NCBI GenBank assembly: GCA_030390025.1
Contig: JASTWF010000328.1
Span: 186,001-250,000 of the forward strand
Source of the DNA: Squalus acanthias
Lineage: Eukaryota
Reading direction: 5' to 3'
Length of the DNA stretch: 64,000 bases
Each line of letters begins with the position of its first letter. Position 1 is the first letter of the stretch. Shown piece by piece: positions 2,528 through 46,337 of the stretch. The translations under genes were made by a program, and so were the position numbers. The notes below the pieces were generated by a model. The model searched no databases and had not been told where the DNA came from. It saw nothing but the letters and a program-made list of their open reading frames with translations.

Positions 2528-3020
2528 TAATAACAGAATCCAAACCCCTGCAGTCACCTGAGAACTCACTGGAGTCTCAGCAGGTGGGGTGAATTTCTTC
2601 CCACACACAGGATATTGAATCAGCCTCTCTCCAGTATCAATGCGCTGATCGTGCTTCAGTTGCTTTGAACTTTGAAAGCTTTTTCACTGTCAGAGTATTT
2701 AAAGCATCTGTTCTCAATGTGGACACTCTGGAGTGTCAACAGGTGGGACAACGGAGTCAATCCCTTCTCACACGTGAAGTATCTAAACGGTCTCTCTCCC
2801 ATGTGACTGTGCTGGTGTGTCAGTATATGGGATGGTCGATAGAATCCCTTTCCACATACAGAGCAGTGAACGGATTCTCCCCATTACGAACATGTCCGTG
2901 TGCTAATAGGTGAGATGAGTGAGTGAATCTCTTTCCATACTCAGCTGGTGAATGGCCTCTCCCCGGTGTGACTGTATCCATGAGTTTCCACCTCAGACGG
3001 GCAACTGAATCCATTCCTAC
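2528..3020 (-). pseudogene. Highly decayed C2H2-ZNF remnant
   Basis: 2530-2590 resembles the 3' end of the first ZNF (225-285). Residual GKRFTHSSHL..H..GENPF finger-like translations on -. Confidence 0.65.
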
Positions 3021-3671
3021 TGTCTAAAAACATTAATTACACCATCTGGGATTTTGTTTCTCCCCTTCTCTCCAGAAGGTGCTGAATCTGGCTGGGTGCA
3101 ATTCCACAGGCATTAGTTAATCTCGAGTGCCTCACCGTCAGCCGACTCAGTGAGTGTCAGCAGCATTTCCACTGTGGTCGGCATCACAGCCGAGTCCAAT
3201 CCTGCCCTCAATTAACATCCATACACTTCCCAGTTCAGGTCACTGGATCGCCATCAAGAGCAGGGGCAGTGGCTGATTTTTACACTTAGCCCAGTGGTAC
3301 TGAGACCAATTATGGCCCCTGAACTGCTGCCTTGGTTGAGATCAACTAACAGCCCAGATCAAGGATTGAATTTGTGACCTTCCCAGTCAGTAGTGCAGAG
3401 TGTTTTAAAGCGGGGGGGGGGTTAGAAAAGAATATTTAGAAAGAAATATCACTCCACCTTTAAATGAAACCTTCGTCACACTGCATAATTAACCAAGCAA
3501 GTCGAATGGATCATCAAAAACAGAGACATTTTAGAAAGGATCAAGTCACTGAAACAGACAGGTTTACAATCACTGCACAGTACAGAAGGGAGCGACTGTT
3601 AATGGGAGCTCTGTTAGTGAAGTCCTCCGACACTCCAAAGATAAACGGGTCTGTCCCTTTAACTATAAATA

Positions 3672-4670
3672 TGAGAAGTCGCACAACACCAGGTTATAGT
3701 CCAACAGATTTATTTAATTTTACAAGCTTTCGGAGCTGTCGCTCCTTCGTCAGGTAAGTTAGCAATGAGAGAATCTCCCAGAATTCACAATTTAAACCCA
3801 GACAAAATCTATTCATATTATTCGCTACAACAAAGAGCACAGCCAAGACAATGAGATGTGTCCCAGGGGGTCCAACGTGTCAAACCACCTGCTGGCTGCA
3901 TATCCTGTCAATTTGTGTTCTTGTGTTAGCCTTTTAAAAAAAAAAAACCAAAAAAAAAAAAACCAAAAAAAACACCTGGGAAGACCGGCCAACGTTGTCT
4001 ACCTGATACGTTGCAGTAAAGGATGCTCCAGAGCATGGTACATCGGCGAGACCATGCAGACACTGAGACAACGTATGAACGGACACCGCGCAACAATCGC
4101 CAGGCAGGAGGGTTGCCTCCCAGTCGGGGAACACTTCAGCAGCCAGGGGCATTCAGCCTCGGATCTGCGGGTAAGCGTTCTCCAAGGCGGCCTTCGAGAT
4201 ACACGACAGCGCAAAATCATAGAGCAGAAACTGATAGCCAAGTTCCGCACTCATGAGGATGGCCTCAATCGCGATATCGGGTTCATGTCACGATACAGAA
4301 CGTGACTTGACATCATGGCCGGTCTTCCCAGGTGTTTTTTTTTTTTTTTTTTTTTGTTTTTTTTTTAAAAGGCAAACACAAGAACACAAATTGACAGGAT
4401 ATGCAGCCAGCAGGTGGTTTGACACGTTGGACCCCCTGGGACACATCTCATTGTCTTGGCTGTGCTCTTTGTTGTAGCGAATAATGTGAATAGATTTTGT
4501 CTGGGTTTAAATTGTGAATTCTGGGAGATTCTCTCATTGCTAACTTACCTGACGAAGGAGCGACAGCTCCGAAAGCTTGTAAAATTAAATAAATCTGTTG
4601 GACTATAACCTGGTGTTGTGCGACTTCTCATTTTTGTCCACCCCAGTCCAACGCCGGCATCTCCACATCA
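3672..4670 (+). mobile_element. Penelope-like element copy 1, 5'-truncated, with inverted pseudo-LTR
   Basis: GIY-YIG endonuclease C-terminus (NVVYLIRC..WYIGET) at 3986-4305. Left arm 3672-3991 is the reverse complement of ~4315-4631. 12-bp TSD taactataaata at 3660-3671 and 4671-4682. Confidence 0.92.
4549..4580 (+). ncRNA. Minimal hammerhead-ribozyme-like motif in Penelope pLTR
   Basis: CTGACGA-A-GGAGC-gaca-GCTCC-GAAA-GCTT: hammerhead core boxes flanking stem II. PLE pLTRs are known to carry minimal HHRs. Antisense copies lie in the inverted arms. Confidence 0.7.
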
Positions 4671-5397
4671 TAACTATAAATAGACAGAGAAAGGGGAGTC
4701 CCTGTCCCTTTAAATATCTGGCCCATTCCCCCAGCAGTGGGAGGAGGAACAGCGCGCGGTCTCTTTATCTCCTGATGTGGAGATGCCAGCGTTGGACTGG
4801 GGTGGACAAAAATGAGAAGTCGCACAACACCAGGTTATAGTCCAACAGATTTATTTAATTTTACAAGCTTTCGAAGCAGTTCGCTCCTTCATCAGGTAAG
4901 TTAGCAATGAGAGAATCTCCCAGAATTCACAATTTAAACCCAGACAAAATCTATTCACATTATTCCCTGCAACAAAGAGCACAGCCAAGACAATGAGATG
5001 TGTCCCAGGGGGTCCAACGTGTCAAACCACCTGCTGGCTGCATATCCTGTCAATTTGTGTTCTTGTGTTAGCCTTTTTAAAAAAAAAAACACCTGGGAAG
5101 ACCGGCCATGATGTCAAGTCACGTTCTGTATCGTGACATGAACCCGATATCGCGATTGAGGCCATCCTCATGAGTGCGGAACTTGGCTATCAGTTTCTGC
5201 TCTATGATTTTGCGCTGTCGTGTATCTCGAAGGCCGCCTTGGAGAACGCTTACCCGCAGATCCGAGGCTGAATGCCCCTGGCTGCTGAAGTGTTCCCCGA
5301 CTGGGAGGCAACCCTCCTGCCTGGCGATTGTTGCGCGGTGTCCGTTCATACGTTGTCTCAGTGTCTGCATGGTCTCGCCGATGTACCATGCTCTGGA

Positions 5398-6256
5398 CCC
5401 TAACCACGTTAAAGAAGCCATCCCCTATGGACAAGCCCTGCGAATACACAGGATCTGCTCAGACGAGGAGGAACGCGATGGACACCTACGGACACTGAAA
5501 GACGCTCTCGTAAGAACGGGATATGACGCTCGACTCGTCGATCGACAGTTCCGACGGGCCACAGCGAAAAACCGCATAGACCTCCTCAGAAGACGAACAT
5601 GGGACACAACCAACAGAGTACCCTACGTCGTCCAGTACTTCCCCGGAGCGGAAAAACTATGCCATGTTCTTCGCAGCCTTCAACATGTCATCGATGACGA
5701 AGAACACCTTGCTAAGGCCATCCCCACGCCTCCACTACTCGCCTTCAAGCAGCCGCCTAACCTCAAAAGTACCATCGTTCGCAGCAGATTACCCATCTTT
5801 CAGGAGAACAGCAACCAAGACACCACACAACCCTGCCATGGCAACCTCTGCAAGACATGCCAAATCATGGACACAGATACCATCATTACACGTGAGGACA
5901 CTACCCACCAGGTACACGGTACATACTCATGTGACTCGGCCAACGTTGTCTACCTGATACGTTGCAGTAAAGGATGCTCCAGAGCATGGTACATCGGCGA
6001 GACCATGCAGACACTGAGACAACGTATGAACGGACACCGCGCAACAATCGCCAGGCAGGAGGGTTGCCTCCCAGTCGGGGAACACTTCAGCAGCCAGGAG
6101 CATTCAGCCTCGGATCTGCGGGTAAGCGTTCTCCAAGGCGGCCTTCGAGATACACGACAGCGCAAAATCATAGAGCAGAAACTGATAGCCAAGTTCCGCA
6201 CTCATGAGGATGGCCTCAATCGCGATATCGGGTTCATGTCACGATACAGAACGTGA
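5398..6256 (+). CDS. Penelope-like ORF C-terminal fragment (RT thumb + Zn-linker + GIY-YIG endonuclease), Neptune-like
   Basis: PNHVKEAIPYGQALRIHRICSD...CHGNLCKTC...NVVYLIRC...YIGET...E..LIAKF...GLN. The ORF-track N-terminus (5174-5397) is only the antisense inverted arm. Confidence 0.85.
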
Positions 6257-6480
6257 CTTGACATCATGGCCGGTCTTCCCAGGTGTTTTTTTTTTTTAAA
6301 AAGGCTAACACAAGAACACAAATTGACAGGATATGCAGCCAGCAGGTGGTTTGACACGTTGGACCCCCTGGGACACATCTCATTGTCTTGGCTGTGCTCT
6401 TTGTTGCAGGGAATAATGTGAATAGATTTTGTCTGGGTTTAAATTGTGAATTCTGGGAGATTCTCTCATTGCTAACTTAC

Positions 6481-6513
6481 CTGACGAAGGAGCGAACTGC
6501 TTCGAAAGCTTGT
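6481..6513 (+). ncRNA. Minimal hammerhead-ribozyme-like motif
   Basis: CTGACGA-A-GGAGC-gaact-GCTTC-GAAA-GCTT. Confidence 0.65.
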
Positions 6514-6618
6514 AAAATTAAATAAATCTGTTGGACTATAACCTGGTGTTGCTCTTTTTGGTTGGACAAACACAAATTTACTGTAAATCAATTAAAACTT
6601 TAAATGAAACTTAACAAA

Positions 6619-9600
6619 TCAAATCAAAATTTGGAAGTCCGGGGTGACGATGCACTCCAGTCCCCGCGGCGCCCACCGGTCGCGGAAAAACTCAAGCGTG
6701 CCGGCGGACACCGCGTGCTCCATCTCCAGGGCCACCCGGGCGCGAACATGGCCGCGGAAGAGAGGCAGGCAATCGGGCCGAATGACCCCCTCGACCGCCC
6801 GCTGCCTGGACCAATTAATGGCTTTCTTGGCCAGGCCCAGGAGCAGTCCTACGAGGAGGTCCTCCGACCTACCCGCTCCCCTCCGCACCGGGTGACCGTA
6901 GATCAGGAGCGTGGGGCTGAAGTGCAACCAGAAATTGAGGAGCAGCCCCTTCAAATAATGAAAGAGGGGCTGCAACCTCTCACACTCAATATAAATGTGA
7001 TAGACGGACTCCTCCAGGCCGCAGAAATGGCAAGCAGCCTGGGAGTCCGTAAACCTACTTAAAATTTTATTGCACGGGACTGCTCCGTGCAACACCCTCC
7101 AGGCCAAGTCCCCAATAGAACAAGGGAAGACTCCCACGTAGAGAGCCTTCCAATGGGGACCTTCGCCTCCGCCGGACGGCAGGATGGTACGCCAAGGCGT
7201 GTCCGGACGGCAGACGAAGATGGCAAAGTGGAGAGTGTGCAGGAGCAGCCCGTACAGGAAACGCCTCCGTGCGGATTGAAAGGGCACGGAGGGCATTTCT
7301 CCGAGAAGGCTCAAGTGGTGAGGCGGCGGCTCCCGAGGGAGGATTCGGGGCCGGGCGCCGATAAGGAATTCCGTCCGAACGGGGGTCAGTTCGGACGGGA
7401 TCGCCCCACGTGCTTGAGCCTCCTCGACACACCTAGTGGAGACGGGGCCCAGTGCCACTTTTAGCGACTCGATGGCTTTGACCGCGAGCCGGACGTTGAC
7501 CCAGGACATGCGCCTCGCCAACTCCTCCGGCGCCATCCAGCCCGCTCCTCCACCATCGAGCAGGTCCCCGACTCTGGTCACCTTACCGGGCACAGCCCTG
7601 CCCTCCGCCAGCCAGCCGAACCCGCGGTCGTGGAGGTGCGGATTCCTGAACAGCGGCTCCCGAAGGATGGCCGCCGCTCCTGACGGGGGAGAACTGCGCT
7701 CGGAGGCGACGCTGTTCCAAACCCATAGCAGTTCCTGGTAGAAGACAGGCAGCTCCCGCAGGCTGGCACGCGTGCCACCCACTCTCACAAACAGGAGCTG
7801 CGTGTCGTAATTGAGGCCGTGCAGCTGGCGGAAGAAATACGTCGCCAGCGCACGCCACCTAGGAGGATTCTCCACGTACAGGTATCTCTGCAGTGTCTGA
7901 AGATGGAAAGTCGCCGCCTGGGTGCGAAGGCACACCAGCGCCTGACCGCCCTCCCTAAGCGGGAGACTCAAAACCGCGGCAGAGACCCAGTGCTTCCTTT
8001 TGTCCCAGAAGAAGTCGACGAGCTTCTTCTGCATCTTGGCGACAAACGCAGGGGGAGGGATCAAAGTGACCAACTGGTACCACAACATGGCGGCCACCAG
8101 CTGGTTTATGACCAGCGCTCGACCCCTGTAGGACAACACTCGGAGCAGTCCTGTCCAGCGCCCTAGGCGAGCGGTGACTTTGGCCTCCAGCTCTTGCCAG
8201 TTCGCCGGCCAGGCGTCCTCGGCCGGGCTGAGGTAGACTCCCAGGTAGAGGAGGTGCGTGGTGCTCCAGGCGAAAGGCCCGAACTCCTCCGGCAGGGAGT
8301 CCACCCGCCATGGGCCCACCAGGAGTCCAGAACATTTCTCCCAGTTGATCTTGGCGGAGGATGCGTCTGAGTAAATCTGCTGGCATTCTCGCATCCTCCG
8401 CAAGTCGATGGGATCCGTGACCGCGAGGAGCACGTCATCGGCGTAAGCCGAGAGGACCACCTCCACGCCCGGCCCTTGCAGAGCCAGTCCCGTCAACCTC
8501 TTCCGCAAGAGGCGCAGGAAAGGCTCCACGCAAACGGCGTATAACTGACCGGACATGGGGCATCCCTGACGCACCCCCCTCCCGAAGCGAAGGGGCGCCG
8601 TCAAAGATCCGTTAACTTTAATGAGACACTCCACGGCGGCGTACAGAAGTCGGATCCGGGCGACGAAATGCGTCCCGAACCCGAATGCGCGCAGAGTCCC
8701 GAAAAGATACTCGTGATCCACCCTGTCGAACGCCTTCTCCTGATCCAGGGAAAGGAAGGCGACCGACAGACCAGCCCTCTGGGAATGGTGGACCAGGTCC
8801 CGGACCAGATGGATGTTATCGTGGATACTCCGGCCCGGGACCGTGTAGGACTGGTCGGGGTGGATCATGCAGGCCAGCACGGTGCCAAGGCGAGCAGACA
8901 TAGCCCTGGCGAAAATTTTGTAGTCCGTGCTGAGGAGGGAGACCGGGCGCCAGTTCTTAAGTAGGCGGAGATCGCCCTTCTTGGGCAGCAGGACGATGAC
9001 CGCCCTGCGCCAAGAGAGGGGCATCTCCCCGGTCGCCAGACTTTCCCCCAGGACCCGCGCGCAGTCGTCCCCCAAGACGTCCCAGAACGCCATGTGGAAC
9101 TCCACGGTCAGCCCGTCCAGCCCCGGGGACTTGCCCCTCGAGAGCTGGCGCAGGGCGCCGGTCAGCTCCGCCAGGCTTAGCGGAGCTTCTAAATTCTCGG
9201 CGCCCTCCGGGCCGACCTTCGGCAGCTCCTCCCACAAAACTCTGCGCGCATCCTCGCTGGACGGATCCGAAGAGAACAGAGCCCCGTAATAGGCCCGGGC
9301 CTCCGCGCTGATGCCCTCCGGATCCGAGACCAGAGATCCGTCGTCGGCCAGCAGCCCCAAGAGCTGCTTACGGACCCCCCGTCTTTTTTCCAGCGAGTAG
9401 AAGAAGGGGGAACCGCGGTCCAGGTCCCGCAGGAACTGGATCCGCGACCTCACGTACGCGCCTCGGGACCCGACCAGCTGCAGGTCCTTCAGCGCGCCCT
9501 TCTTCTCTTCGTACACCTTCCGCAGGGCCGGGTCCTCGACGACCTGACCGAGACGGGACTCCAGGTCGAGCACTTCTTTCTCCAATTGCCCGACCCGGGC

Positions 9601-10518
9601 CTCCCGCCTCTTGGTCGACCCCTTCGCGTACTCCTGACAGAAGACGCGGACGTGAGCCTTGCCCACGTCCCACCATAGCCTCAAGGAGGGGAAGCCTCCC
9701 CGCTTCCTTCTCCAGTCGGCCCAGAACCGGCGAAACGAATCCCGGAACCGCGCGTCCTCCAGCAGCAGGTTGTTAAAATGCCAGTACGCGGACCCCCCCC
9801 GCGCGCGCAGCAGAGCGAGCTCTGCCCACACCAGGTGGTGGTCCGTGCACGGCACCGGCCGCATGGAAGCCGCCGGAACGCAGGAGACGTACGCCCGGGA
9901 AATGTAAAGACGGTCGATTCTGGACCTTCCTCCTCCAGACCTCACGCTCGTGAAGGCGCTGGAGTCGGGATGGAGATTTCGCCAGACGTCCACAAAGTCG
10001 AAGGACCCGACCAGGTCCCGCAACTTCTCCATCGCCGCCGGGCTTCGCGGGGGACCCGACCGGTCCCGCGCCTCGAGGGTACAATTGAAATCCCCCCCGA
10101 GGATGACGCACTCGCCCACGTCGATGGAGCCCAGAAGAGCGGACACTTCTCCGAAGAAGCGCACTTGCTGCGCACCGGTCCGGGGGGCGTACACGTTCAC
10201 TAAATGGAGCGGCACGCCTCCCAGGCGAACAGTGACCTGGAGCAAGCGGCCCGGCACGTGCTCCTTGACCCTCAAGATCTCCGGCTGAAAATGCGGGGCC
10301 AGCAAGACAGCCACCCCGCAGGAATTGTTAGAGAGGTGACTCATGCTGACCCCTCCTTGCCACTCCAGGAGCCACGTGGCCTCGTCTCCCGGAGCGGTGT
10401 GGGTTTCTTGCAGGAAGCGCACCGCATATTTCCCGTCCCGAAGGACCGAGAAGTTATTGAATCTACGGCGCGCCTCCCTGCTGCCGTTGATGTTGAGGCT
10501 GGCTATGGTTATCTTCAT
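6619..10518 (-). CDS. Tx1 ORF2 (AP endonuclease, reverse transcriptase, C-terminal zinc finger), intact
   Basis: SLNINGS, LQETH, GGDFN, RIDR, TDH (APE); LDQEKAFDRV, QGCPMS, YADD (RT); CHFC..H...C. First ATG at 10518. Confidence 0.95.
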   Translation of the reverse strand: MKITIASLNINGSREARRRFNNFSVLRDGKYAVRFLQETHTAPGDEATWLLEWQGGVSMSHLSNNSCGVAVLLAPHFQPEILRVKEHVPGRLLQVTVRLGGVPLHLVNVYAPRTGAQQVRFFGEVSALLGSIDVGECVILGGDFNCTLEARDRSGPPRSPAAMEKLRDLVGSFDFVDVWRNLHPDSSAFTSVRSGGGRSRIDRLYISRAYVSCVPAASMRPVPCTDHHLVWAELALLRARGGSAYWHFNNLLLEDARFRDSFRRFWADWRRKRGGFPSLRLWWDVGKAHVRVFCQEYAKGSTKRREARVGQLEKEVLDLESRLGQVVEDPALRKVYEEKKGALKDLQLVGSRGAYVRSRIQFLRDLDRGSPFFYSLEKRRGVRKQLLGLLADDGSLVSDPEGISAEARAYYGALFSSDPSSEDARRVLWEELPKVGPEGAENLEAPLSLAELTGALRQLSRGKSPGLDGLTVEFHMAFWDVLGDDCARVLGESLATGEMPLSWRRAVIVLLPKKGDLRLLKNWRPVSLLSTDYKIFARAMSARLGTVLACMIHPDQSYTVPGRSIHDNIHLVRDLVHHSQRAGLSVAFLSLDQEKAFDRVDHEYLFGTLRAFGFGTHFVARIRLLYAAVECLIKVNGSLTAPLRFGRGVRQGCPMSGQLYAVCVEPFLRLLRKRLTGLALQGPGVEVVLSAYADDVLLAVTDPIDLRRMRECQQIYSDASSAKINWEKCSGLLVGPWRVDSLPEEFGPFAWSTTHLLYLGVYLSPAEDAWPANWQELEAKVTARLGRWTGLLRVLSYRGRALVINQLVAAMLWYQLVTLIPPPAFVAKMQKKLVDFFWDKRKHWVSAAVLSLPLREGGQALVCLRTQAATFHLQTLQRYLYVENPPRWRALATYFFRQLHGLNYDTQLLFVRVGGTRASLRELPVFYQELLWVWNSVASERSSPPSGAAAILREPLFRNPHLHDRGFGWLAEGRAVPGKVTRVGDLLDGGGAGWMAPEELARRMSWVNVRLAVKAIESLKVALGPVSTRCVEEAQARGAIPSELTPVRTEFLIGARPRILPREPPPHHLSLLGEMPSVPFQSARRRFLYGLLLHTLHFAIFVCRPDTPWRTILPSGGGEGPHWKALYVGVFPCSIGDLAWRVLHGAVPCNKILSRFTDSQAACHFCGLEESVYHIYIECERLQPLFHYLKGLLLNFWLHFSPTLLIYGHPVRRGAGRSEDLLVGLLLGLAKKAINWSRQRAVEGVIRPDCLPLFRGHVRARVALEMEHAVSAGTLEFFRDRWAPRGLECIVTPDFQILI

Positions 10519-10543
10519 CTCAGAAGCATAGTGCAACCTCTAC

Positions 10544-12703
10544 CTAACGGAGGGGAGGGAGCGCGGTCACCGACGACCGCCACTCCCTCAGCAGCCCAGT
10601 GTGGAAACTCTTGAGCCGACGCAGCTCGAGCCGGCCAACGTCCTTGTCCGCGCCCATGATTTTAACGGCGGCGCGGACGGACACGACGAGCAGCGCCAGC
10701 TCCGACCACTTGTCGAGGGCCAGCCGGATCTTCTTGTGACGACCCTGGCTCATGGCCATAAAATCCCGGAGTTCCCCTACGGGGATGAGGGGAGAGTTGG
10801 TGAAGGGCACGAGGGCATCCATCACCTCGCTGCCGATGGACTCCAAATCGTCCTCGATGCCCACCACCGAGTCCCCGTCCTCCTCCGGGAGGTCGTCACC
10901 GGCGGCCGACCCGTCCGTCGCACGGGGTGCAGCGAACGGCTCGGCCGCACCGGCCGGCCCCGCCTCCGTCACGATCCCACCCCCAGGATCGGTGGCAGAG
11001 GAGTCCACCCTGGGCTCCTTCAGGGGCGCCGGGCCGGGAGGCGGCGGCGGCGGTTCGGGGCCCCCCCCCCGCCTCAGGCGCCGGAGCGACCGGAGAAACC
11101 GGGGAGAAAATAATCTCAAATTCCTCCAGTACGTCCGGCGCCAACATCAGAGACGGAGTCAGGGGGCTTTCCGTCTCCCCGCCACCAACCTCCGACACAG
11201 CGGGCTGGGGATTGTTAAAGTCCTCCACCAGGTCGAGCAGTCCCTGGGAGATATCTGGATTGTAAAAGGCGGGCTCGGCTTCAGCCTCTTTGGCCTCGCC
11301 CGCCCCAGTCCCCAGGACGCCCGACCCGGCGAGGAGCAACGGTTCCGGAACTACATTTCCCTCCGCGGGTTGTTCCGCGCCCCCCCCCCCACGGGCAGGG
11401 TCTCTTCCCCATCCCCGGGAGGCACAGGTCGGACAGACTCGGCTGTCTCACCCTCCCGAGGGACAGACGACCCCTGCCGATCGCGCGCGACGATGACGGT
11501 GGTGGGGTGGGGCGCAGCACCCGCGGCGGGCGACTGCCCCCCTTTTGCGGAGGGACCTTCCTCCTCGCAGTCCTCCTGCTGGGGGCGGAGCTTTCTTTTT
11601 AACAAGTTGGGGCCCGGGGAGGGGGAGGCCTCCATGTCTGCTGGGGCCTCCCTCTCTGCCCCCTTCCGACGACTGGGTTTCTTGGGCCCCTCGGGCCCGA
11701 GCCCGGCCGCAGGTCTTGATTCAGCTGCCTCAGCAGTTGCCGTCACGGTCACGGGCCCGGGCACGAGGACCCCCCCAGTCTCATGCGTCCCGACCAACTC
11801 CGCGATATACTCGGGCGTGAGTTCGGTCAATTCCGATGTTTCCTCCGCGAGGGGATCCGCCCTTAGGTGTTTAGTTTTCCTACGCGCCTTCCTTCCCCCC
11901 GGACGCTCTCCCTCCTCCCCGCCGGAGGCCGTGGTGGTGTTGGCCTCCGATTCCGACCGCGCATCCGTCGCCGTCGACGCGCGGACAGCATCAGGGGGAG
12001 GGGGGGCGGCGGCGCCAACCCTGGCCGCGCCAGGTGTCGTGGCGGCCTTGGAGGCGGGGCAGTTTTTGCGGACGTGCCCCACCTCCTTACAGGCGTAGCA
12101 CCGCTCGCCGTCCGAGGTCCAGAAGACGCGGTGGGCGGTCCCCCCGTGGAGCACCGTGAACGCGCCATCCGCGTCCTCCTCCCGCGCCAGCCAGACGAAA
12201 AGCTGGCGCCGGAAGGAGAAGACGTGCCGAAGGCTGGCTTCCCGGAAGCCGAGCGGGATGGGTGTGATCCCCGACCTCACCTCCCCCAGTTGACGTAGGT
12301 GGGGGAGGAGGAGCTCACCCGGAACAAAGGGCGGGACGTTGGAAACCACAATCCTTTGCGCGGTGGCCTCAAGGGGGTCCACCGGCAGGAAGGTCCCGCC
12401 CACGGTGAGCCCCTTCTCGATGGCCAGGGACACCGCCCGCTCCGACCCCAGGAAGAACACAGCCTTGCCGTACATTTTAGAGGCGGCGACGATGGCTGAA
12501 GGGCCGACAACCCCAGCCATGGCTTTAACGCACGCCTCTATAGTCATGTTGGGGTGAGTGTAGCTCTTGACCCCATTCTTCCTCGTAAGGAGGGTAAAAG
12601 GTGACGGGGTAACAGGAGGACTCGTGGCTGCGGCCGTGGCCGCGGCTGCCACGCTCGCATACGTCCTCGCTGCCCCCGCCACCGACGAAGATGTACTCGC
12701 CAT
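10544..12703 (-). pseudogene. Tx1 ORF1 copy A, split by homopolymer indels
   Basis: Matches copy B ORF1 but has C11 vs C9 at ~11380-11390 and C10 vs C9 at 11061-11070, giving a stop at 11351. Confidence 0.85.
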
Positions 12704-13803
12704 AATGGAGGGTTCTTTAAGGGCTACACTCACCCCAAGTCACAGGCCTGAAGGTGTTAATGGCCTCGGTTTTTTATTTCTGTTTTCCCCTGAGCAGAGG
12801 GAGCTCTTAAATTGAAGGCACACCTCTCCCTTTAGTTGATTGAATTAGGAGAGGGGCCTTCTCCCCTCTGCTCAATAGGTACTTAATTAAAATAGATTGA
12901 GGTGCCTCTTAGAGAGAGAGGCAGAGAGAGACAAGAGACAAAGAGAGAGAGAGAGGGGGGGGTGGGAAGGAGGGAAGCCGCAAGGGCAGGGTCGCCACTC
13001 AGGATGGTGGGTGGGTGGGTGTTGGCAGGGGGGGTGCACTCTCCGATGTAATAAAAGTCTCTGGTGGTGGTCTTCTGGTGGGGGGAGAAGATGTCTTCAC
13101 CTGGGATAGCTGGAGATGCCCAGGCTCAGTCCTGCACCAGGTCTTAACGATGCCCAATTGGATTAAATTAATTGGGGAACTTCACCTAGGCAGCTCCAGC
13201 TGGCCCAGGTCAGGCAATGGGAAAGGGGTGTTTAATATGGTGTGTGCGGCCTAGGTTTTACAAAAGCCACACACACACACACACACCCCTTGGATGTTCC
13301 GGCCCTCTTCTTATCTTCTTTCCTCCCCCCACCTACAAAACAAAGTCTCTGGGAGAGTGCACCAGAATCACACCCACCTGTAGCTGATGTTCTTTCCTTC
13401 CTTCCTCCTTCCAAACAGATGATGTTGTGTTGTTTTCTCCCCTCTCTCCCTCTCCTAAAAATGGAGGCCAATTGAGGAGGCAGTGTGGAAAGGCCTCTCC
13501 TCTGTTGTTAATGGCCTTGGCCTTTCCTTCTTTTCCTTCTCCTCTCCTGTCCTCCCTCTCCAGGCACCTCAGTTGTGGTTGTTGTTGGTTGTTGGTGGTG
13601 GTCTGCTATCTGGTCTCCTTCTCCTTCTCCTCTTCCTGGTCACAGAGACCACCACTCTGATGCTGCTGCTCCTCAGTCAGCAGCTCCGAAAGCTTGTGAT
13701 TTCAAATCAAGCTGTTGGACTATAACCTGGTGTTGATCTTTTTGGTTTGACAGAACGCAAATTTACTGTAAATCAATTAAAACTTGAAATGAAACTTAAT
13801 AAA

Positions 13804-16800
13804 TCAAATTAAAATTTGAAAGTCCGGGGTGACGATGCACTCCAGTCCCCGCGGCGCCCACCGGTCGCGGAAAAACTCAAGCGTGCCGGCGGACACCGCG
13901 TGCTCCATCTCCAGGGCCACCCGGGCGCGAACATGGCCGCGGAAGAGAGGCAGGCAATCGGGCCGAACGACCCCCTCGACCGCCCGCTGCCTGGACCAAT
14001 TAATGGCTTTCTTGGCCAGGCCCAGGAGCAGTCCTACGAGGAGGTCCTCCGACCTACCCTGTCCCCTCCGCACCGGGTGACCGTAGATCAGGAGCGTGGG
14101 GCTGAAGTGCAACCAGAAATTGAGGAGCAGCCCCTTCAAATAATGAAAGAGGGGCTGCAACCTCTCACATTCAACATAAATGTGATAAACGGACTCCTCC
14201 AGGCCGCAAAAATGGCAAGCAGCCTGGGAGTCCGTAAACCTACTTAAAATCCTATTGCACGGGACTGCTCCGTGCAACACCCTCCAGGCCAAGTCCCCAA
14301 TAGAACAAGGGAAGACTCCCGCGTAGAGAGCCTTCCAATGGGGACCTTCGCCTCCGCCGGACGGCAGGATGGTACGCCAAGGCGTGTCCGGACGGCAGAC
14401 GAAGATGGCAAAGTGGAGAGTGTGCAGGAGCAGCCCGTACAGGAAACGCCTCCGTGCGGATTGAAAGGGCACGGAGGGCATTTCTCCGAGAAGGCTCAAG
14501 TGGTGAGGCGGCGGCTCCCGAGGGAGGATTCGGGGCCGGGCGCCGATAAGGAATTCCGTCCGAACGGGGGTCAGTTCGGACGGGATCGCCCCACGTGCTT
14601 GAGCCTCCTCGACACACCTAGTGGAGACGGGGCCCAGTGCCACTTTTAGCGACTCGATGGCTTTGACCGCGAGCCGGACGTTGACCCAAGACATGCGCCT
14701 CGCCAACTCCTCCGGCGCCATCCAGCCCGCTCCTCCGCCATCGAGCAGGTCCCCGACTCTGGTCACCTTACCGGGCACAGCCCTGCCCTCCGCCAGCCAG
14801 CCGAACCCGCGGTCGTGGAGGTGCGGATTCCTGAACAGCGGCTCCCGAAGGACGGCCGCCGCTCCTGACGGGGGAGAACTGCGCTCGGAGGCGACGCTGT
14901 TCCAAACCCATAGCAGTTCCTGGTAGAAGACAGGCAGCTCCCGCAGGCTGGCACGCGTGCCACCCACTCTCACAAACAGGAGCTGCGTGTCGTAATTGAG
15001 GCCGTGCAGCTGGCGGAAGAAATACGTCGCCAGCGCACGCCACCTAGGAGGATTCTCCACGTACAGGTATCTCTGCAGCGTCTGAAGACGGAAAGTCGCC
15101 ACCTGGGTGCGAAGGCACACCAGCGCCTGACCGCCCTCCCTAAGCGGGAGACTCAAAACCGCGGCAGAGACCCAGTGCTTCCTTTTGTCCCAGAAGAAGT
15201 CGACGAGCTTCTTCTGCATCTTGGCGACAAACGCAGGGGGAGGGATCAAAGTGATCAACCGGTACCACAACATGGCGGCCACCAGCTGGTTTATGACCAG
15301 CGCTCGACCCCTGTAGGACAACACTCGGAGCAGTCCTGTCCAGCGTCCTAGGCGAGCGGTGACTTTGGCCTCCAGCTCTTGCCAGTTCGCCGGCCAGGCG
15401 TCCTCGGCCGGGCTGAGGTAGACTCCCAGGTAGAGGAGGTGCGTGGTGCTCCAGGCGAAAGGCCCGAACTCCTCCGGCAGGGAGTCCACCTGCCATGGGC
15501 CCACCAGGAGTCCAGAACATTTCTCCCAGTTGATCTTGGCGGAGGATGCGTCCGAGTAAATCTGCTGGCATTCTCGCATCCTCCGCAAGTCGACGGGATC
15601 CGTGACCGCGAGGAGCACGTCATCGGCGTAAGCCGAGAGGACCACCTCCACGCCCGGCCCTTGCAGAGCCAGTCCCGTCAACCTCTTCCGCAAGAGGCGC
15701 AGGAAAGGCTCCACGCAAACGGCGTATAACTGACCGGACATGGGGCATCCCTGACGCACCCCCCTCCCGAAGCGAAGGGGCGCCGTCAAAGACCCGTTAA
15801 CTTTAATCAGACACTCCGCGGCGGCGTACAGAAGTCGGATCCGGGCGACGAAATGCGTCCCGAACCCGAATGCGCGCAGAGTCCCGAAAAGATACTCGTG
15901 ATCCACCCTGTCGAACGCCTTCTCCTGATCCAGGGAAAGGAAGGCGACCGACAGACCAGCCCTCTGGGAATGGTGGACCAGGTCCCGGACCAGATGGATG
16001 TTATCGTGGATACTCCGGCCCGGGACCGTGTAGGACTGGTCGGGGTGGATCATGCGGGCCAGCACGGTGCCAAGGCGAGCAGACATAGCCCTGGCGAAAA
16101 TTTTGTAGTCCGTGCTGAGGAGGGAGACCGGGCGCCAGTTCTTAAGTAGGCGGAGATCGCCCTTCTTGGGCAGCAGGACGATGACCGCCCTGCGCCAAGA
16201 GAGGGGCATCTCCCCGGTCGCCAGACTTTCCCCCAGGACCCGCGCGTAGTCGTCCCCCAAGACGTCCCAGAACGCCCTGTGGAACTCCACGGTCAGCCCG
16301 TCCAGCCCCGGGGACTTGCCCCTCGAGAGCTGGCGCAGGGCGCCGGTCAGCTCCGCCAGGCTTAGCGGAGCTTCTAAATTCTCGGCGCCCTCCGGGCCGA
16401 CCTTCGGCAGGTCCTCCCACAAAACTCTGCGCGCATCCTCGCTGGACGGATCCGAAGAGAACAGAGCCCCGTAATAGGCCCGGGCCTCCGCGCTGATGCC
16501 CTCCGGATCCGAGACCAGAGATCCGTCGTCGGCCAGCAGCCCCAAGAGCTGCTTACGGACCCCCCGTCTTTTTTCCAGCGAGTAGAAGAAGGGGGAGCCG
16601 CGGTCCAGGTCCCGCAGGAACTGGATCCGCGACCTCACGTACGCGCCTCGGGACCCGACCAGCTGCAGGTCCTTCAGCGCGCCCTTCTTCTCTTCGTACA
16701 CCTTCCGCAGGGCCGGGTCCTCGACGACTTGACCGAGACGGGACTCCAGGTCGAGCACTTCTTTCTCCAATCGCCCGACCCGGGCCTCCCGCCTCTTGGT

Positions 16801-17703
16801 CGACCCCTTCGCGTACTCCTGACAGAAGACGCGGACGTGAGCCTTGCCCACGTCCCACCATAGCCTCAAGGAGGGGAAGCCTCCCCGCTTCCTTCTCCAG
16901 TCGGCCCAGAACCGGCGAAACGAATCCCGGAACCGCGCGTCCTCCAGCAGCAGGTTGTTAAAATGCCAGTACGCGGACCCCCCCCGCGCGCGCAGCGGAG
17001 CGAGCTCCGCCCACACCAGGTGGTGGTCCGTGCACGGCACCGGCCGCATGGAAGCCGCCGGAACGCAGGAGACGTACGCCCGGGAAATGTAAAGGCGGTC
17101 GATTCTGGACCTTCCTCCTCCAGACCTCACGCTCGTGAAGGCGCTGGAGTCGGGATGGAGATTTCGCCAGACGTCCACCAAGTCGAAGGACCCGACCAGG
17201 TCCCGCAACTTCTCCATCGCCGCCGGGCTTCGCGGGGGACCCGACCGGTCCCGCGCCTCGAGGGTACAATTGAAATCCCCCCCGAGGATGACGCACTCGC
17301 CCACGTCGATGGAGCCCAGAAGAGCGGACACTTCTCCGAAGAAGCGCACTTGCTGCGCACCGGTCCGGGGGGCGTACACGTTCACTAAATGGAGCGGCAC
17401 GCCTCCCAGGCGAACAGTGACCTGGAGCAAGCGGCCCGGCACGTGCTCCTTGACCCTCAAGATCTCCGGCTGAAAATGCGGGGCCAGCAAGACAGCCACC
17501 CCGCAGGAATTGTTGGAGAGGTGACTCATGCTGACCCCTCCTTGCCACTCCAGGAGCCACGTGGCCTCGTCTCCCGGAACGGTGTGGGTTTCTTGCAGGA
17601 AGCACACCGCATATTTCCCGTCCCGAAGGACCGAGAAGTTATTGAATCTACGGCGCGCCTCCCTGCTGCCGTTGATGTTGAGGCTGGCTATGGTTATCTT
17701 CAT
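13804..17703 (-). CDS. Tx1 ORF2 (APE-RT-zf), intact
   Basis: Same motifs as copy A. First ATG at 17703. Confidence 0.95.
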   Translation of the reverse strand: MKITIASLNINGSREARRRFNNFSVLRDGKYAVCFLQETHTVPGDEATWLLEWQGGVSMSHLSNNSCGVAVLLAPHFQPEILRVKEHVPGRLLQVTVRLGGVPLHLVNVYAPRTGAQQVRFFGEVSALLGSIDVGECVILGGDFNCTLEARDRSGPPRSPAAMEKLRDLVGSFDLVDVWRNLHPDSSAFTSVRSGGGRSRIDRLYISRAYVSCVPAASMRPVPCTDHHLVWAELAPLRARGGSAYWHFNNLLLEDARFRDSFRRFWADWRRKRGGFPSLRLWWDVGKAHVRVFCQEYAKGSTKRREARVGRLEKEVLDLESRLGQVVEDPALRKVYEEKKGALKDLQLVGSRGAYVRSRIQFLRDLDRGSPFFYSLEKRRGVRKQLLGLLADDGSLVSDPEGISAEARAYYGALFSSDPSSEDARRVLWEDLPKVGPEGAENLEAPLSLAELTGALRQLSRGKSPGLDGLTVEFHRAFWDVLGDDYARVLGESLATGEMPLSWRRAVIVLLPKKGDLRLLKNWRPVSLLSTDYKIFARAMSARLGTVLARMIHPDQSYTVPGRSIHDNIHLVRDLVHHSQRAGLSVAFLSLDQEKAFDRVDHEYLFGTLRAFGFGTHFVARIRLLYAAAECLIKVNGSLTAPLRFGRGVRQGCPMSGQLYAVCVEPFLRLLRKRLTGLALQGPGVEVVLSAYADDVLLAVTDPVDLRRMRECQQIYSDASSAKINWEKCSGLLVGPWQVDSLPEEFGPFAWSTTHLLYLGVYLSPAEDAWPANWQELEAKVTARLGRWTGLLRVLSYRGRALVINQLVAAMLWYRLITLIPPPAFVAKMQKKLVDFFWDKRKHWVSAAVLSLPLREGGQALVCLRTQVATFRLQTLQRYLYVENPPRWRALATYFFRQLHGLNYDTQLLFVRVGGTRASLRELPVFYQELLWVWNSVASERSSPPSGAAAVLREPLFRNPHLHDRGFGWLAEGRAVPGKVTRVGDLLDGGGAGWMAPEELARRMSWVNVRLAVKAIESLKVALGPVSTRCVEEAQARGAIPSELTPVRTEFLIGARPRILPREPPPHHLSLLGEMPSVPFQSARRRFLYGLLLHTLHFAIFVCRPDTPWRTILPSGGGEGPHWKALYAGVFPCSIGDLAWRVLHGAVPCNRILSRFTDSQAACHFCGLEESVYHIYVECERLQPLFHYLKGLLLNFWLHFSPTLLIYGHPVRRGQGRSEDLLVGLLLGLAKKAINWSRQRAVEGVVRPDCLPLFRGHVRARVALEMEHAVSAGTLEFFRDRWAPRGLECIVTPDFQILI

Positions 17704-17728
17704 CTCAGAAGCATAGTGCAACCTCTAC

Positions 17729-19885
17729 CTAACGGAGGGGAGGGAGGGCGGTCACTGACGACCGCCACTCCCTCAGCAGCCCAGTGTGGAACGTCTTGAG
17801 CCGACGCAGCTCGAGCCGGCCAACGTCCTTGTCCGCGCCCATGATTTTAACGGCGGCGCGGACGGACACGACGAGCAGCGTCAGCTCCGACCACTTGTCG
17901 AGGGCCAGCCGGATCTTCTTGTGACGACCCTGGCTCACGGCCATAAAATCCCGGAGTTCCCCTACGGGGATGAGGGGAGAGTCGGTGAAGGGCACGAGGG
18001 CGTCCATCGCCTCGCTGCCGATGGACTCCAAATCGTCCTCGATGCCCCCCACCGAGTCCCCGTCCTCCTCCGGGAGGTCGTCACCGGCGGCCAACCCGTC
18101 CGTCACACAGGGTGCAGCGAACGGCTCGGCCGCACCGGCCGGCCCCGCCTCCGTCACGATCCCACCCCCAGGATCGGTGGCAGAGGAGTCCACCCTGGGC
18201 TCCTTCAGGGGCGCCGGGCCGGGAGGCGGCGGCGGCGGTTCGGGGCCCCCCCCCGCCTCAGGCGCCGGGGCGACCGGAGAAACCGGGGAGAAAATAATCC
18301 CAAATTCCTCCAGCACGTCCGGCGCCAACAACAGAGACGGAGTCAGGGGGCTTTCCGTCTCCCCGCCACCAACCTCCGACCCAGCGGGCTGGGGATTGCT
18401 ACACTCCTCCACCAGGTCGAGCAGTCCCTGGGAGATATCTGGGTTATAAAAGGCGGGCTCGGCTTCAGCCTCTTTGGCCTCGCCCGCCCCAGTCCCCAGG
18501 ACGCCCGACCCGGCGAGGAGCAACGGTTCCGTAACTACATTTCCCTCCGCGGGTTGTTCCGCGCCCCCCCCCACGGGCAGGGTCTCTTCCCCATCCCCGG
18601 GAGGCACAGGTCGGACAGACTCCGCTGTCTCACCCTCCCGAGGGACAGACGACCCCTGCCGATCGCGCGCGACGATGACGGTGGTGGGGTGGGGCGCAGC
18701 ACCCGCGGCGGGCGACTGGCCCCCTTTTGCGGAGGGACCTTCCTCCTCGCAGTCCTCCTGCTGGGGGCGGAGCTTTCTTTTTAACGTATTGGGGCCCGGA
18801 GAGGGGGAGGCCTCCATGTCTGCTGGGGCCTCCCTCTCTGCCCCCTTCCGACGACTGGGTTTCTTGGGCCCCTCGGGCCCGAGCCCGGCCGCAGGTCTTG
18901 ATTCAGCCGCCTCGGCAGTTGCGGTCACGGTCACGGGCCCGGGCACGAGGACCCCCCCAGTCTCATGCGTCCCGACCAACTCCGCGATATACTCGGGCGT
19001 GAGTTCGGCCAATTCAGATGTTTCCTCCGCGAGGGGATCCGCCCTTATGTGTTTATTTTTCCTACGCGCCTTCCTTCCCCCCGGACGCTCTCCCTCCTCC
19101 CCGCCGGAGGCCGTGGTGGAGTTGGCCTCCGATTTCGACCGCGCATCCGTCGCCGTCGACGCGCGGACAGTATCAGGGGGAGGGGGGGCGGCGGCGCCAA
19201 TCCTGGCCGCGCCAGGTGTCGTGGCGGCCTTGGAGGCGGGGCAGTTTTTGCGGACGTGCCCCACCTCCTTACAGGCGTAGCACCGCACGCCGTCCGAGGT
19301 CCAGAAGACGCGGTGGGCGGTCCCCCCGTGGAGCACCGTGAACGCGCCGTCCGCGTCCTCCTCCCGCGCCAGCCGGACGAAAAGCTGGCGCCGGAAGGAG
19401 AAGACGTGCCGAAGGCTGGCTTCCCGGAAGCCGAGCGGGATGGGTGTGATCCCCGACCTCACCTCCCCCAGTTGACGTAGGTGGGGGAGGAGGAGCTCAC
19501 CCGGAACAAAGGGCGGGACGTTGGAGACCACAATCCTTTGCGCGGTGGCCTCAAGGGGGTCCACCGGCAGGAAGGTCCCGCCCACGGTGAGCCCCTTCTC
19601 GATGGCCAGGGACACCGCCCGCTCCGACCCCAGGAAGAACACAGCCTTGCCGTACATTTTAGAGGCGGCGACGATGGCTGAAGGGCCGACAACCCCAGCC
19701 ATGGCTTTTACACACGCCTCTATAGTCATGTTGGGGTGAGTGTAGCTCTTGACCCCATTCTTCCTCGTAAGGAGGGTAAAAGGTGACGGGGTAACAGGAG
19801 GACTCGTGGCTGCGGCCGTGGCCGCGGCTGCCACGCTCGCATACGTCCTCGCTGCCCCCGCCACCGACGAAGATGTACTCGCCAT
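17729..19885 (-). CDS. Tx1 ORF1 (nucleic-acid-binding protein, CCHC zinc knuckle, long low-complexity tail)
   Basis: CYACKEVGHVRKNC knuckle; RIVVSNVPPFV RRM-like segment typical of Tx1 ORF1. First ATG at 19885. Confidence 0.9.
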   Translation of the reverse strand: MASTSSSVAGAARTYASVAAAATAAATSPPVTPSPFTLLTRKNGVKSYTHPNMTIEACVKAMAGVVGPSAIVAASKMYGKAVFFLGSERAVSLAIEKGLTVGGTFLPVDPLEATAQRIVVSNVPPFVPGELLLPHLRQLGEVRSGITPIPLGFREASLRHVFSFRRQLFVRLAREEDADGAFTVLHGGTAHRVFWTSDGVRCYACKEVGHVRKNCPASKAATTPGAARIGAAAPPPPDTVRASTATDARSKSEANSTTASGGEEGERPGGRKARRKNKHIRADPLAEETSELAELTPEYIAELVGTHETGGVLVPGPVTVTATAEAAESRPAAGLGPEGPKKPSRRKGAEREAPADMEASPSPGPNTLKRKLRPQQEDCEEEGPSAKGGQSPAAGAAPHPTTVIVARDRQGSSVPREGETAESVRPVPPGDGEETLPVGGGAEQPAEGNVVTEPLLLAGSGVLGTGAGEAKEAEAEPAFYNPDISQGLLDLVEECSNPQPAGSEVGGGETESPLTPSLLLAPDVLEEFGIIFSPVSPVAPAPEAGGGPEPPPPPPGPAPLKEPRVDSSATDPGGGIVTEAGPAGAAEPFAAPCVTDGLAAGDDLPEEDGDSVGGIEDDLESIGSEAMDALVPFTDSPLIPVGELRDFMAVSQGRHKKIRLALDKWSELTLLVVSVRAAVKIMGADKDVGRLELRRLKTFHTGLLREWRSSVTALPPLR

Positions 19886-20939
19886 AATGGAGGGTTCTTT
19901 AAGGGCTACACTCACCCCAAGTCACAGGCCTGAAGGTGTTAATGGCCTCGGTTTTTTTTGTTTTAGTTTTCCCCTGAGCAGAGGGAGCTCTTAAATTGAA
20001 GGCACACCTCTCCCTTTAGTTGATTGAATTGGGAGAGGGGCCTTCTCCCCTCTGCTCAATGGGTATTTAATAAAATGTTAATTGAGGTGCCTCTTAGAGA
20101 GAGAGGCAGAGAGAGACAGAGACAAAGAGAGAGAGAGAGAGGGGGTAGGAAGGAGGGAAGCCGCAAGGGCAGGGTCGCCACTCAGGATGGTGGGTGGGTG
20201 GGTGTTGGCAGGGGGGGTGCACTCTCCGATGTAATAAAAGTCTCTGGTGGTGGTCTTCTGGTGGGGGGAGAAGATGTCTTCACCTGGGATAGCTGGAGAT
20301 GCCCAGGCTCAGTCCTGCACCAGGTCTTAACGATGCCCAATTGGATTAAATTAATTGGGGAACTTCACCTAGGCAGCTCCAGCTGGCCCAGGTCAGGCAA
20401 TGGGAAAGGGGTGTTTAATATGGTGTGTGCGGCCTAGGTTTTACAAAAGCCACACACACACACACACACACCCCTTGGATGTTCCGGCCCTCTTCTTATC
20501 TTCTTTCCTCCCCCCACCTACAAAACAAAGTCTCTGGGAGAGTGCACCAGAATCACACCCACCTGTAGCTGATGTTCTTTCCTTCCTTCCTCCTTCCAAA
20601 CAGATGATGTTGTGTTGTTTTCTCCCCTCTCTCCCTCTCCTAAAAATGGAGGCCAATTGAGGAGGCAGTGTGGAAAGGCCTCTCCTCTGTTGTTAATGGC
20701 CTTGGCCTTTCCTTCTTTTCCTTCTCCTCTCCTGTCCTCCCTCTCCAGGCACCTCAGTTGTGGTTGTTGTTGGTTGTTGGTGGTGGTCTGCTATCTGGTC
20801 TCCTTCTCCTTCTCCTCTTCCTGGTCACAGAGACCACCACTCTGATGCTGCTGCTCCTCAGTCAGCAGCTCCGAAAGCTTGTGATTTCAAATCAAGCTGT
20901 TGGACTATAACCTGGTGTTGTGCGACCTCTCAGGAGGAG

Positions 20940-21345
20940 GCAGATATGGATCATCCACTCAGCAATTCTGGCTGAAGATGGTTGCAAACGCTTCAGCCTT
21001 GTCTTTTGCAATCACGTGCTGGGCTCCACCATCAGTGAGGATGGGGATATTCATGGAGCCTCCTCTTCCTGTTAGTTGGTGAATGGTCCACCACCATTTA
21101 CGACTGGATGTGGCAGCACTGCAGAGCTTTGATCTGATCCGTTGATTGTGAGATTGCTTAGCCCTGTCTATAGCATGCTGCATTCGTTTTTTAGCATGCA
21201 TGTAGTCCTGTGTTGCAGCTTCCCCAGGTTGGCACCTCATTTTTTTGTACGCATGGTGCTGCTCACGGCATGCTCTTCTACACTCCTCATTGAACCAGGG
21301 TTGGTCCCCTGGCTTGATGGTAATGGTAGATTGAGGGATATGCCA
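20940..21345 (-). mobile_element. Non-LTR retrotransposon internal fragment (non-CR1 family)
   Basis: Translation ..KWWWTI..KDKAEAFATIFSQ.. resembles a LINE EN-RT linker. Confidence 0.6.
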
Positions 21346-21346
21346 G

Positions 21347-22872
21347 GACAGAGTGAGGGATTCACCAGTGCTGTGAGATAAGGCTCACTGTTAATACTGC
21401 AGGAGTGGGACCAGTACCAGCACTGACAGAGTGAGGGATTCACCAGTGCTGTGTGATAAGGCTCACTGTTAATACTGCAGGAGTGGGTCCAGTACCAGCA
21501 CTGACAGAGTGAGGGATTCACCAGTGCTGTGAGATGAGGCTCACTGTTAATACTGCAGGAGTGGGTCCAGTACCAGCACTGACAGAGTGAGGGATTCACC
21601 AGTGCTATGAGATGAGGCTCACTGTTAATACTGCAGGAGAGGGACCAGTACCAGCACTGACAGAGTGAGGGATTCACCAGTGCTGTGAGATAAGGCTCAC
21701 TGTTAATACTGCAGGAGTGGGACCAGTACCAGCACTGACAGAGTGAGGGATTCACCAGTGCTGTGTGATAAGGCTCACTGTTAATACTGCAGGAGTGGGT
21801 CCAGTACCAGCACTGACAGAGTGAGGGATTCACCAGTGCTGTGAGATGAGGCTCACTGTTAATACTGCAGGAGTGGGTCCAGTACCAGCACTGACAGAGT
21901 GAGGGATTCACCAGTGCTATGAGATGAGGCTCACTGTTAATACTGCAGGAGAGGGACCAGTACCAGCACTGACAGAGTGAGGGATTCACCAGTGCTATGA
22001 GATGAGGCTCACTGTTAATACTGCAGGAGTGGGTCCAGTACCAGCACTGACAGAGTGAGGGATTCACCAGTGCTGTGAGATAAGGCTCACTGTTAATACT
22101 GCAGGAGTGGGTCCAGTACCAGCACTGACAGAGTGAGGGATTCACCAGTGCTGTGAGATGAGGCTCACTGTTAATACTGCAGGAGAGGGACCAGTACCAG
22201 CACTGACAGAGTGAGGGATTCACCAGTGCTATGAGATGAGGCTCACTGTTAATACTGCAGGAGTGGGTCCAGTACCAGCACTGACAGAGTGAGGGATTCA
22301 CCAGTGCTGTGAGATGAGGCTCACTGTTAATACTGCAGGAGTGGGACCAGCACTGACAGAGTGAGGGATTCACCAGTGCTATGAGATGAGGCTCACTGTT
22401 AATACTGCAGGAGTGGGTCCAGTACCAGCACTGACAGAGTGAGGGATTCACCAGTGCTGTGAGATGAGGCTCACTGTTAATACTGCAGGAGAGGGACCAG
22501 TACCAGCACTGACAGAGTGAGGGATTCACCAGTGCTATGAGATGAGGCTCACTGTTAATACTGCAGGAGTGGGACCAGTACTGATAGAGTGAGGGATTCA
22601 CCAGTGCTGTGAGATGAGACTCACTGTTAATACTGCAGGAGTGGGACCAGCACTGACAGAGTGAGGGATTCACCAGTGCTGTGAGATGAGACTCACTGTT
22701 AATACTGCAGGAGTGGGACCAGCACTGACAGAGTGAGGGATTCACCAGTGCTGTGTGATGAGGCTCACTGTTAATACTGCAGGACTGGGACCAGCACTGA
22801 TAGAGTGAGGGATTCACCAGTGCTGTGAGATGAGGCTCACTGTTAATACTGCAGGAGTGGGTTCAGTACCAG
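21347..22872. repeat. 78-bp (some 72-bp) minisatellite, ~20 units
   Basis: Unit gacagagtgagggattcaccagtgctgtgagatgaggctcactgttaatactgcaggagtgggtccagtaccagcact. Confidence 0.97.
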
Positions 22873-22879
22873 TTCTGGT

Positions 22880-39875: not shown

Positions 39876-39961
39876 GCTTCACCTGACGAAGGAGCAGCCG
39901 CTCCGAAAGCTTGTGATTTCAAATAAAACTGTTGGACTATAACCTGGTGTTGTGCGACTTC
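39876..39961 (+). mobile_element. 86-bp solo Penelope terminal fragment containing the HHR-like core
   Basis: CTGACGAAGGAGCagccGCTCCGAAAGCTT..ctgttggactataacctggtgttgtgcgacttc, flanked by TSD tcataaatag (39866-39875, 39962-39971). Confidence 0.9.
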
Positions 39962-40265
39962 TCATAAATAGAGGTATAGAGTTCAAAAGCAAGGAAGTAA
40001 TGATGAACCTTTATATAAAAACTGGTGCGGCTTCAACTGCAGCATTGTTTCCAATTCTGGGCACCGTACTTTAGGAAGGATGTGAAGGCCTTAGAGAAGG
40101 CGCAGAGAATATTTACGAGAATGGTTCCAGGGTGAGGGACTTCAGTTACATGGATAGACTGGGGAAGCTGGGTTTGTTCTCCTTAGAGCAGAGAAGGTTG
40201 AGAGGAAATTTGATTGAGGTGTTCAAAATCATGAGGGGTCTCCACAGCGTAGATGGAGAGAAACT

Positions 40266-45050: not shown

Positions 45051-45062
45051 TAGGCGGGGAAA

Positions 45063-46078: not shown

Positions 46079-46337
46079 TGAGTCAACTACTTCACTTTCC
46101 ATCTGGAACTCGGTTGTGGAGATCAGCGGGACTCACTGGATTTCACTGGGCAGCTGTCTGTGTCACACCTGATGTGGAGAGTTGATGGTAACACTCGGGA
46201 AATGCTCGATCCCAGAGATAACAGCTGTTGTACTGATGGGGGAGGAGGGACTTGATATCATGTTTATCGAGGCAACGTTCTCCTTCTCATTTTAATATTT
46301 CCGTCTAACACTCCTATTAATATTATATTTATTACAG

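Follow-up and report, generated by a model that had tools for sequence, protein, structure and literature searches.

Two LINE copies that lie head to tail in the genome of Squalus acanthias both begin with sequence of the repeat into which they are inserted. This raises the question of whether such a head belongs to the element or to the site, and what part, if any, it plays in joining the 5′ end of a new copy and in stacking one copy upon another.

Two Tandem Tx1-Clade Copies and Their Shared Head

Both copies lie on the (-) strand of the window (the whole 64,000-nucleotide stretch of contig JASTWF010000328.1 that was analyzed) and were delimited by ORF and sequence comparison; copy A (6552–13735), downstream and probably the older, and copy B (13736–20920), upstream and probably the newer, are 98.4% identical. 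A separate ORF1 is present, with a PF00098 zinc knuckle in a 730-aa frame. In copy B, the ORF1 frame (17729–19921, with the CCHC knuckle) is followed by an ORF2 frame (13804–17724) containing APE endonuclease, RT, and zf-RVT domains (PF03372, PF00078, and PF13966, respectively), and a poly(A) tail is absent; in copy A, a frameshift splits the ORF1 frame, and the ORF2 frame (6619–10539) is open. ORF2 shares 653 of 1299 residues with Xenopus laevis Tx1L (YTX2_XENLA), i.e., ∼50% identity across 100% of the length. Judged by identity rather than by a tree, the window LINE is a young Tx1-clade element with Tx1L as the nearest among named elements. Two more RT-bearing frames (40253–42535 and 52617–54497) come from other LINEs; the window also contains four related repeats spaced 1.3–1.7 kb apart (50.5–55.9 kb) and minisatellite arrays at 21269–22877, 229–1076, 35941–37207, 44978–46127, and 49803–57012, with units of 78, 84, 21/27, 43, 31, 51, and 70 bp.

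As the first-pass annotation had reported, a 55-bp head is identical in copy A (13681–13735) and copy B (20866–20920), and only 24 bp of it match the local host (13712–13735 against 6528–6551), the next bases of the host being divergent. The rest of the head resembles another host variant, represented in the window by an empty target site found by sequence comparison (39880–39962, (+) strand; 55 of 58 bp matched within 39895–39952). Since both elements lie on the (-) strand, the 24 bp form the outer end and the other 31 bp copy host sequence downstream of the nick. The head is followed by a 16-bp piece (20850–20865 in B, 13665–13680 in A, both on the (-) strand) that resembles the reverse complement of host +56 to +71, one half of the hammerhead core. 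Such an inverted resemblance is expected if the cDNA end once primed on neighboring target DNA, and the 16 bp are likely a fold-back scar of the capture. Just after the head (20845–20860), the 5′ UTR contains a CAG run whose length varies between copies; the 5′ UTR is 94–96% identical between copies, far more variable than the 3′ end.

Host Repeat, Target Site, and Target Site Duplications

Pfam and Rfam searches of the host repeat gave no match; a host ORF (5405–6253) matched HTH_animal/GIY-YIG clusters in atlas features (0.97), and the repeat ends carry minimal hammerhead-like motifs (cf. PMC6155905) on the strand opposite to the LINE. The host appears to be the end of a Penelope-like repeat, and the LINE appears to target one site of this very abundant repeat. 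In the window, the host end downstream of the array (6478–6551, (+) strand) comprises such a motif (6478–6514) and the 3′ target copy (6528–6551), and a 12-bp host remnant upstream of the array (20921–20932, (+) strand) leaves the nick context intact. Exact target 19-mers number 100,606 in the 3.7-Gb genome. In a by-eye comparison of lists, 90 of the 100 first-listed tails lay at the repeat site or in its arrays, and the remaining 10 fell at seven other loci, each sharing only 5–9 bases with the repeat site.

Truncated first arrivals were flanked by target site duplications (TSDs) of 11–18 bp in nine of 10 junction types and of about 26–35 bp in one, which does not agree with an earlier reading of the 24 bp as the TSD; the 24 bp are simply the invariant part of the host, ending where host variants start to diverge. 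Given an ordinary TSD of 11–18 bp, the captured part of the head comes to about 39 bp. In copy B, +1 to +16 (20905–20920) has the ordinary TSD length and +17 to +55 is captured downstream target; the head of copy A is the same, and its outer part doubles as the 3′ TSD of copy B.

Several further features of target and tail were recorded. The region 3650–6550 of the window consists of nested inverted Penelope-like fragments with arms 97–100% complementary and four hammerhead-like ends, one of them occupied. Inverted host repeats with an insertion in both arms, tails facing, were found at G000:C2:164562549/164562688, C2:164776944/164777083, and C4:43982373/43983244, the first two of which look like duplicates of one region. 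Tail junctions in L001–L126 and the window are without poly(A). The first target base after the tail was G, not C, in 15 of 132 junctions (L001–L126 plus the window, overlapping loci counted), including L171, where the 5′ flank has C; the RNA 3′ end thus probably supplies the G and may read into the target.

Preference for Occupied Sites

Genome-wide, 1,056 exact tail-target junctions and 899 5′ UTR motifs were counted. The check covered 99 of the first 100 listed copies bearing the 5′ UTR motif; 95 of them started seamlessly at target +1 (80 matched by eye to lists of heads, and 15 of 19 by fetched sequence); 78 carried a head of 44 or 55 bp, 18 a head of 16 bp, one a partial head, and two none. 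Heads stood behind host upstream sequence in 372 cases and behind the tail of another copy in 361, so that about half of the headed copies (361/733) were stacked, at target sites of which 0.4–1% are occupied. This corresponds to a 47–133-fold enrichment over site occupancy, an upper estimate since some of the 100,606 sites may be unusable. Stacking is thus far commoner than site regeneration alone predicts. At the canonical site, units were separated by the TSD and added at the 5′ TSD, as is typical of R1. The proposal that the head rebuilds the target for later copies was not supported: short-headed copies, headless truncated copies, and non-Penelope arrays stack too, and a requirement of the head for stacking was rejected, the TSD plus an intact upstream flank being enough.

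Homology-assisted completion of the cDNA may be the cause of this preference, and it is the cause we favor. In a broader version, which we offer only tentatively, pairing of cDNA (or RNA) just downstream of the nick would decide where insertions succeed; occupied sites, even off-target ones, would be self-reinforcing attractors, truncated cDNAs would be rescued to the length of the neighbor to yield full-length arrays, and recapture of the head from the host would let it track target drift without a change of endonuclease. A rather unlikely alternative is that the head is an inherited neutral scar and that occupied sites are preferred through open chromatin or nearby transcription, not homology. 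Under this alternative, it is unsurprising that short-headed copies (92 of about 899) are seamless and stack too, that three head lengths coexist, and that stacking differed little, and not significantly, between short and long heads (16/100 vs. 8/100, P = 0.13); it is harder to reconcile with promoter-less truncated units that were re-hit up to 10 or more times, off target too, with the long heads in 78 of 99 copies, and with mosaic heads, which show pairing of the head with the target or conversion by it.

Probable Copying From the Downstream Neighbor

The first 773 bp of copy B (20148–20920, (-) strand) are free of substitutions relative to copy A (about 12965–13735), with 105 substitutions in the remainder (P about 7e-6), and this stretch of B appears to have been copied from its neighbor. 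Among 1584 unlinked pairs, none had fewer than two substitutions in 600 bp, and the closest other copy showed 15 differences; past 773 bp, the closest relatives of A and of B are not the same, and the two belong to different lineages. The two window heads are thus both real but represent one event.

The same pattern was found in other arrays. Seven of 11 same-array pairs had three or fewer substitutions in 600 bp, the other four having clearly independent 5′ ends. In seven of eight truncated arrays, hand-picked among the matches listed rather than sampled genome-wide, all units shared one private cut point and junction (2, 2, 2, 3, 4, 6, and at least 10 units); the exception (L104) had two different cut points. 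Adjacent truncated units were identical in 0 of 21 pairs, and their tail types recur at unlinked loci. Priming of a newcomer at the upstream TSD, with the downstream neighbor serving as template for the rest of its cDNA, would account for shared cut points combined with differing tails. At L188, a non-Penelope site with a 15-bp TSD and four units, the pioneer adjoins the host and the three upstream units are of another lineage; the 5′ alleles of the pioneer vanish stepwise going upstream, with unit u2 patchy rather than showing a single switch, and the differences among the three newer units all lie within the first 389 of 2289 bp. This allele gradient suggests that the L188 array grows upstream. 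A full-length dimer with a 9-bp TSD (L156/L157) has strongly divergent tails and a common leader present at only two places in the genome; an interpretation of this dimer as a sister family with its own target and head was rejected, the leader being private to it. Short heads had a short-headed upstream neighbor in 21 of 92 cases vs. 4.6 expected, a clustering that would imply neighbor copying in roughly 40% of stackings. L113 and L122 proved to be further tandem units, not host; the expected 3′ junction of L185 was uninformative because of a deletion, and the L115 region missed the junction.

Arrays might instead derive from duplication of one insertion by unequal exchange via the TSD or whole units, followed by gene conversion or by tail replacement through later reverse transcription, which we regard as improbable. 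Near-identical full-length neighbors do exist over all 3.5 kb compared (L034/L035, L056/L057, and L045–47), and unequal exchange explains these equally well; unlinked young copies are equally alike at the 3′ end. In the C8 array, units u5 and u9 are also identical although not adjacent, and R1 arrays grow by unequal exchange (PMC5932611). Some arrays here have probably gained units in this way, and duplication followed by tail replacement is possible, but duplication accounts poorly for the lack of any identical adjacent truncated pair, for dimers that would require exchange through 9–15 bp, for the stepwise allele gradient in L188, and for one tail type that was 5′-most in four of five arrays and 3′-most in none of the five (P = 0.048). 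Completion of newcomers on the downstream neighbor is the reading preferred here.

Inheritance and Origin of the Head

Heads were compared with the adjoining host DNA in 27 long-headed copies, six short-headed pairs and three altered junctions being left out; this pairing of head and host presumes no rearrangement afterwards. In 19 of the 27, including copy A, the head differed from the host within +9 to +46 (by two or more bases in 17), which agrees with the earlier proposal that the head belongs to the element rather than to the TSD of the site; for copy A specifically, the head is element-borne because past +24 it no longer matches the local host. The mosaics L143 and L150, two of the 19, are host-specific to about +20 and element-like beyond, and rare host variants beyond +17 were mirrored by the head in four of the 27. 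In the short class, G at +12 occurred in 26 of 92 heads vs. <0.15% of target sites (at most 146 beside 100,606), and the host base at this position was T in all five G-at-+12 copies checked, from four independent loci; head variants also recur on unlinked contigs. Collectively, the +12 variant, the 19 differing heads, and the mosaics indicate that the head is inherited, extends to +12 or farther, and at times takes over sequence from the local target. An expectation that the head should be constant whatever the host was thus borne out as to inheritance, but not as to form, with classes of 16, 44, and 55 bp and some heads that mirror the local host. As implied by the inheritance of head variants in the sequences compared, the RNA 5′ end would carry target sequence.

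That the 31 bp are only a long, variable TSD, or a recombination junction of each site, is very improbable. Such a reading could draw on the eight of 27 heads that equal the host through +46, two of which share rare host variants, but the 31 bp neither always mirror the host nor are absent, the head of one copy (L136) is 44 bp long although just 18 bp are available in its host, and the +12 variant is linked to the element; the 27-copy comparison refutes a long or variable TSD as a general rule. That the tandem copies are assembly artifacts is scarcely credible even though long near-identical repeats are hard to assemble, as 105 positions distinguish A from B, the units of arrays have tails specific to different lineages, and a tail-to-head joint is spanned by one contig from an independent public run, albeit as weak evidence.

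Ahead of a common core 5′ end, the 44- and 55-bp heads seem to have been captured separately. One array (G000:C8:78131289-78181573), with eight full-length copies, contains at least five head variants and shows that newcomers often keep their own head. Unusual copies include L147 (G000:C1:125529090-125529235), a short-class copy with the +12 variant whose 5′ end starts from about +11 at a junction that loses about 14 bp of target, and L166 (G000:C3:16775850-16776120), reduced by internal deletion to about 110 bp, in which the head, a little 5′ UTR, and the tail lie between target copies. L160 was rejected as off-target proof that the RNA carries the head, its 3′ end being on target and its 5′ side rearranged. 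A ribozyme on the Tx1 sense strand that would define the 5′ end was not found: there was no Rfam match in window 3000–22000, although divergent ribozymes can escape such a search, the fold z was -1.48, and hammerhead-like motifs lay in host copies and in host orientation in five of five cases, with none on the Tx1 sense strand.

Proposed Mechanism and Implications

In the model that we consider probable as a whole, new cDNA pairs with the strand on the downstream side of the nick, whether target or neighbor, and is completed on it. The Tx1-clade LINE would nick one site of the Penelope-like repeat and reverse-transcribe there, with one of three outcomes. Where there is no homology, as in truncated first arrivals, the cDNA would join after an 11–18-bp TSD, as the junctions with microhomology or extra bases show. 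A full-length transcript carrying 16–55 nt of downstream target at its 5′ end would yield a cDNA that pairs with the target to give a seamless junction, with mismatches settling mostly to the element and sometimes to the host, so that the head is refreshed; inheritance and mosaics are seen directly in the heads. Annealing of the head to the target, as first suggested, thus gains indirect support from the mosaics and the seamless junctions, the pairing itself being what we infer. Where an older copy lies downstream, the cDNA would pair with that copy and extend along it back to the nick, and the newcomer would inherit the 5′ junction of its neighbor plus a variable 5′ stretch, the pattern found in the arrays. 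As for the head, it probably arose when this reaction took place on an empty target and then became fixed, and stacking would require the TSD and the upstream flank only.

In this family, the attachment of LINE 5′ ends has left a natural record, which bears on the joining of the cDNA 5′ end and on second-strand priming, for which annealing was thought inapplicable to APE elements that cut downstream (PMC2718515). About 1,000 young junctions carry natural markers in target, head, and neighbor, so that pairing length and polarity are readable from the genome and testable with an intact-looking copy. A truncation point common to several units is no proof of duplication and could be misread as such; if homology homing were general, many LINE “tandem duplications” would be serial insertions. 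A design rule is also suggested for LINE tools of the APE type, namely downstream homology for precise full-length insertion.

Comparison With Known Systems

No report was found of a Tx1 element targeting Penelope, of a head with downstream homology, or of arrays with shared truncations and different tails in a literature search of incomplete coverage. Tx1L of X. laevis likewise has an APE endonuclease and RT and inserts into another mobile element (PMC4494074; PMC1950540), but its target is a piggyBac-type element rather than a Penelope-like repeat end, and the accessible portions of both papers describe neither a target-derived head nor neighbor copying. R1 of Drosophila is also an APE element, with a top-strand cut about 14 bp downstream and tandem arrays that arise by insertion at the 5′ TSD; the accessible text (PMC2718515) does not mention units that have a private truncation in common but differ in their tails. 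In melanogaster-type R1A, 28S sequence at the RNA 5′ end anneals to give precise junctions (Stage and Eickbush, 2009; PMC2718515), but the extra sequence is from upstream of the nick, with a 9-bp deletion, and annealing was stated not to be possible with downstream cleavage. In R2, target homology at the RNA 5′ end similarly yields seamless “anneal” junctions, for which 11 bp suffice, although R2 uses a restriction-like endonuclease and its upstream homology stems from co-transcription and is set by an HDV-like ribozyme (Palm et al., 2024; PMC11331408). The Squalus element appears to work like R2 and R1A annealing but lacks their upstream homology, its head matching +1 to +55 downstream of the nick.

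L1 templated insertions are rare somatic one-offs of <250 bp, with 22 cases described (10.1101/2024.08.27.596794). The events here, in contrast, belong to the germline, are frequent and inherited, and recur at one site. Gilbert et al. reportedly observed, in cultured cells, chimeras between L1 and resident L1 copies nearby. Double insertion (McGurk and Barbash, 2018; PMC5932611) and tandem SINEU-3 (Kojima, 2015; PMC4494074) share with the present arrays a TSD between stacked units, the TSD preserving the site so that later copies stack with a TSD between them; in those systems, distinct truncations mark independent insertions, whereas here independent insertions share one truncation. Each ingredient thus has a precedent in the sources cited, namely R1 arrays, R1A and R2 annealing, double insertion, and L1 templated insertions.
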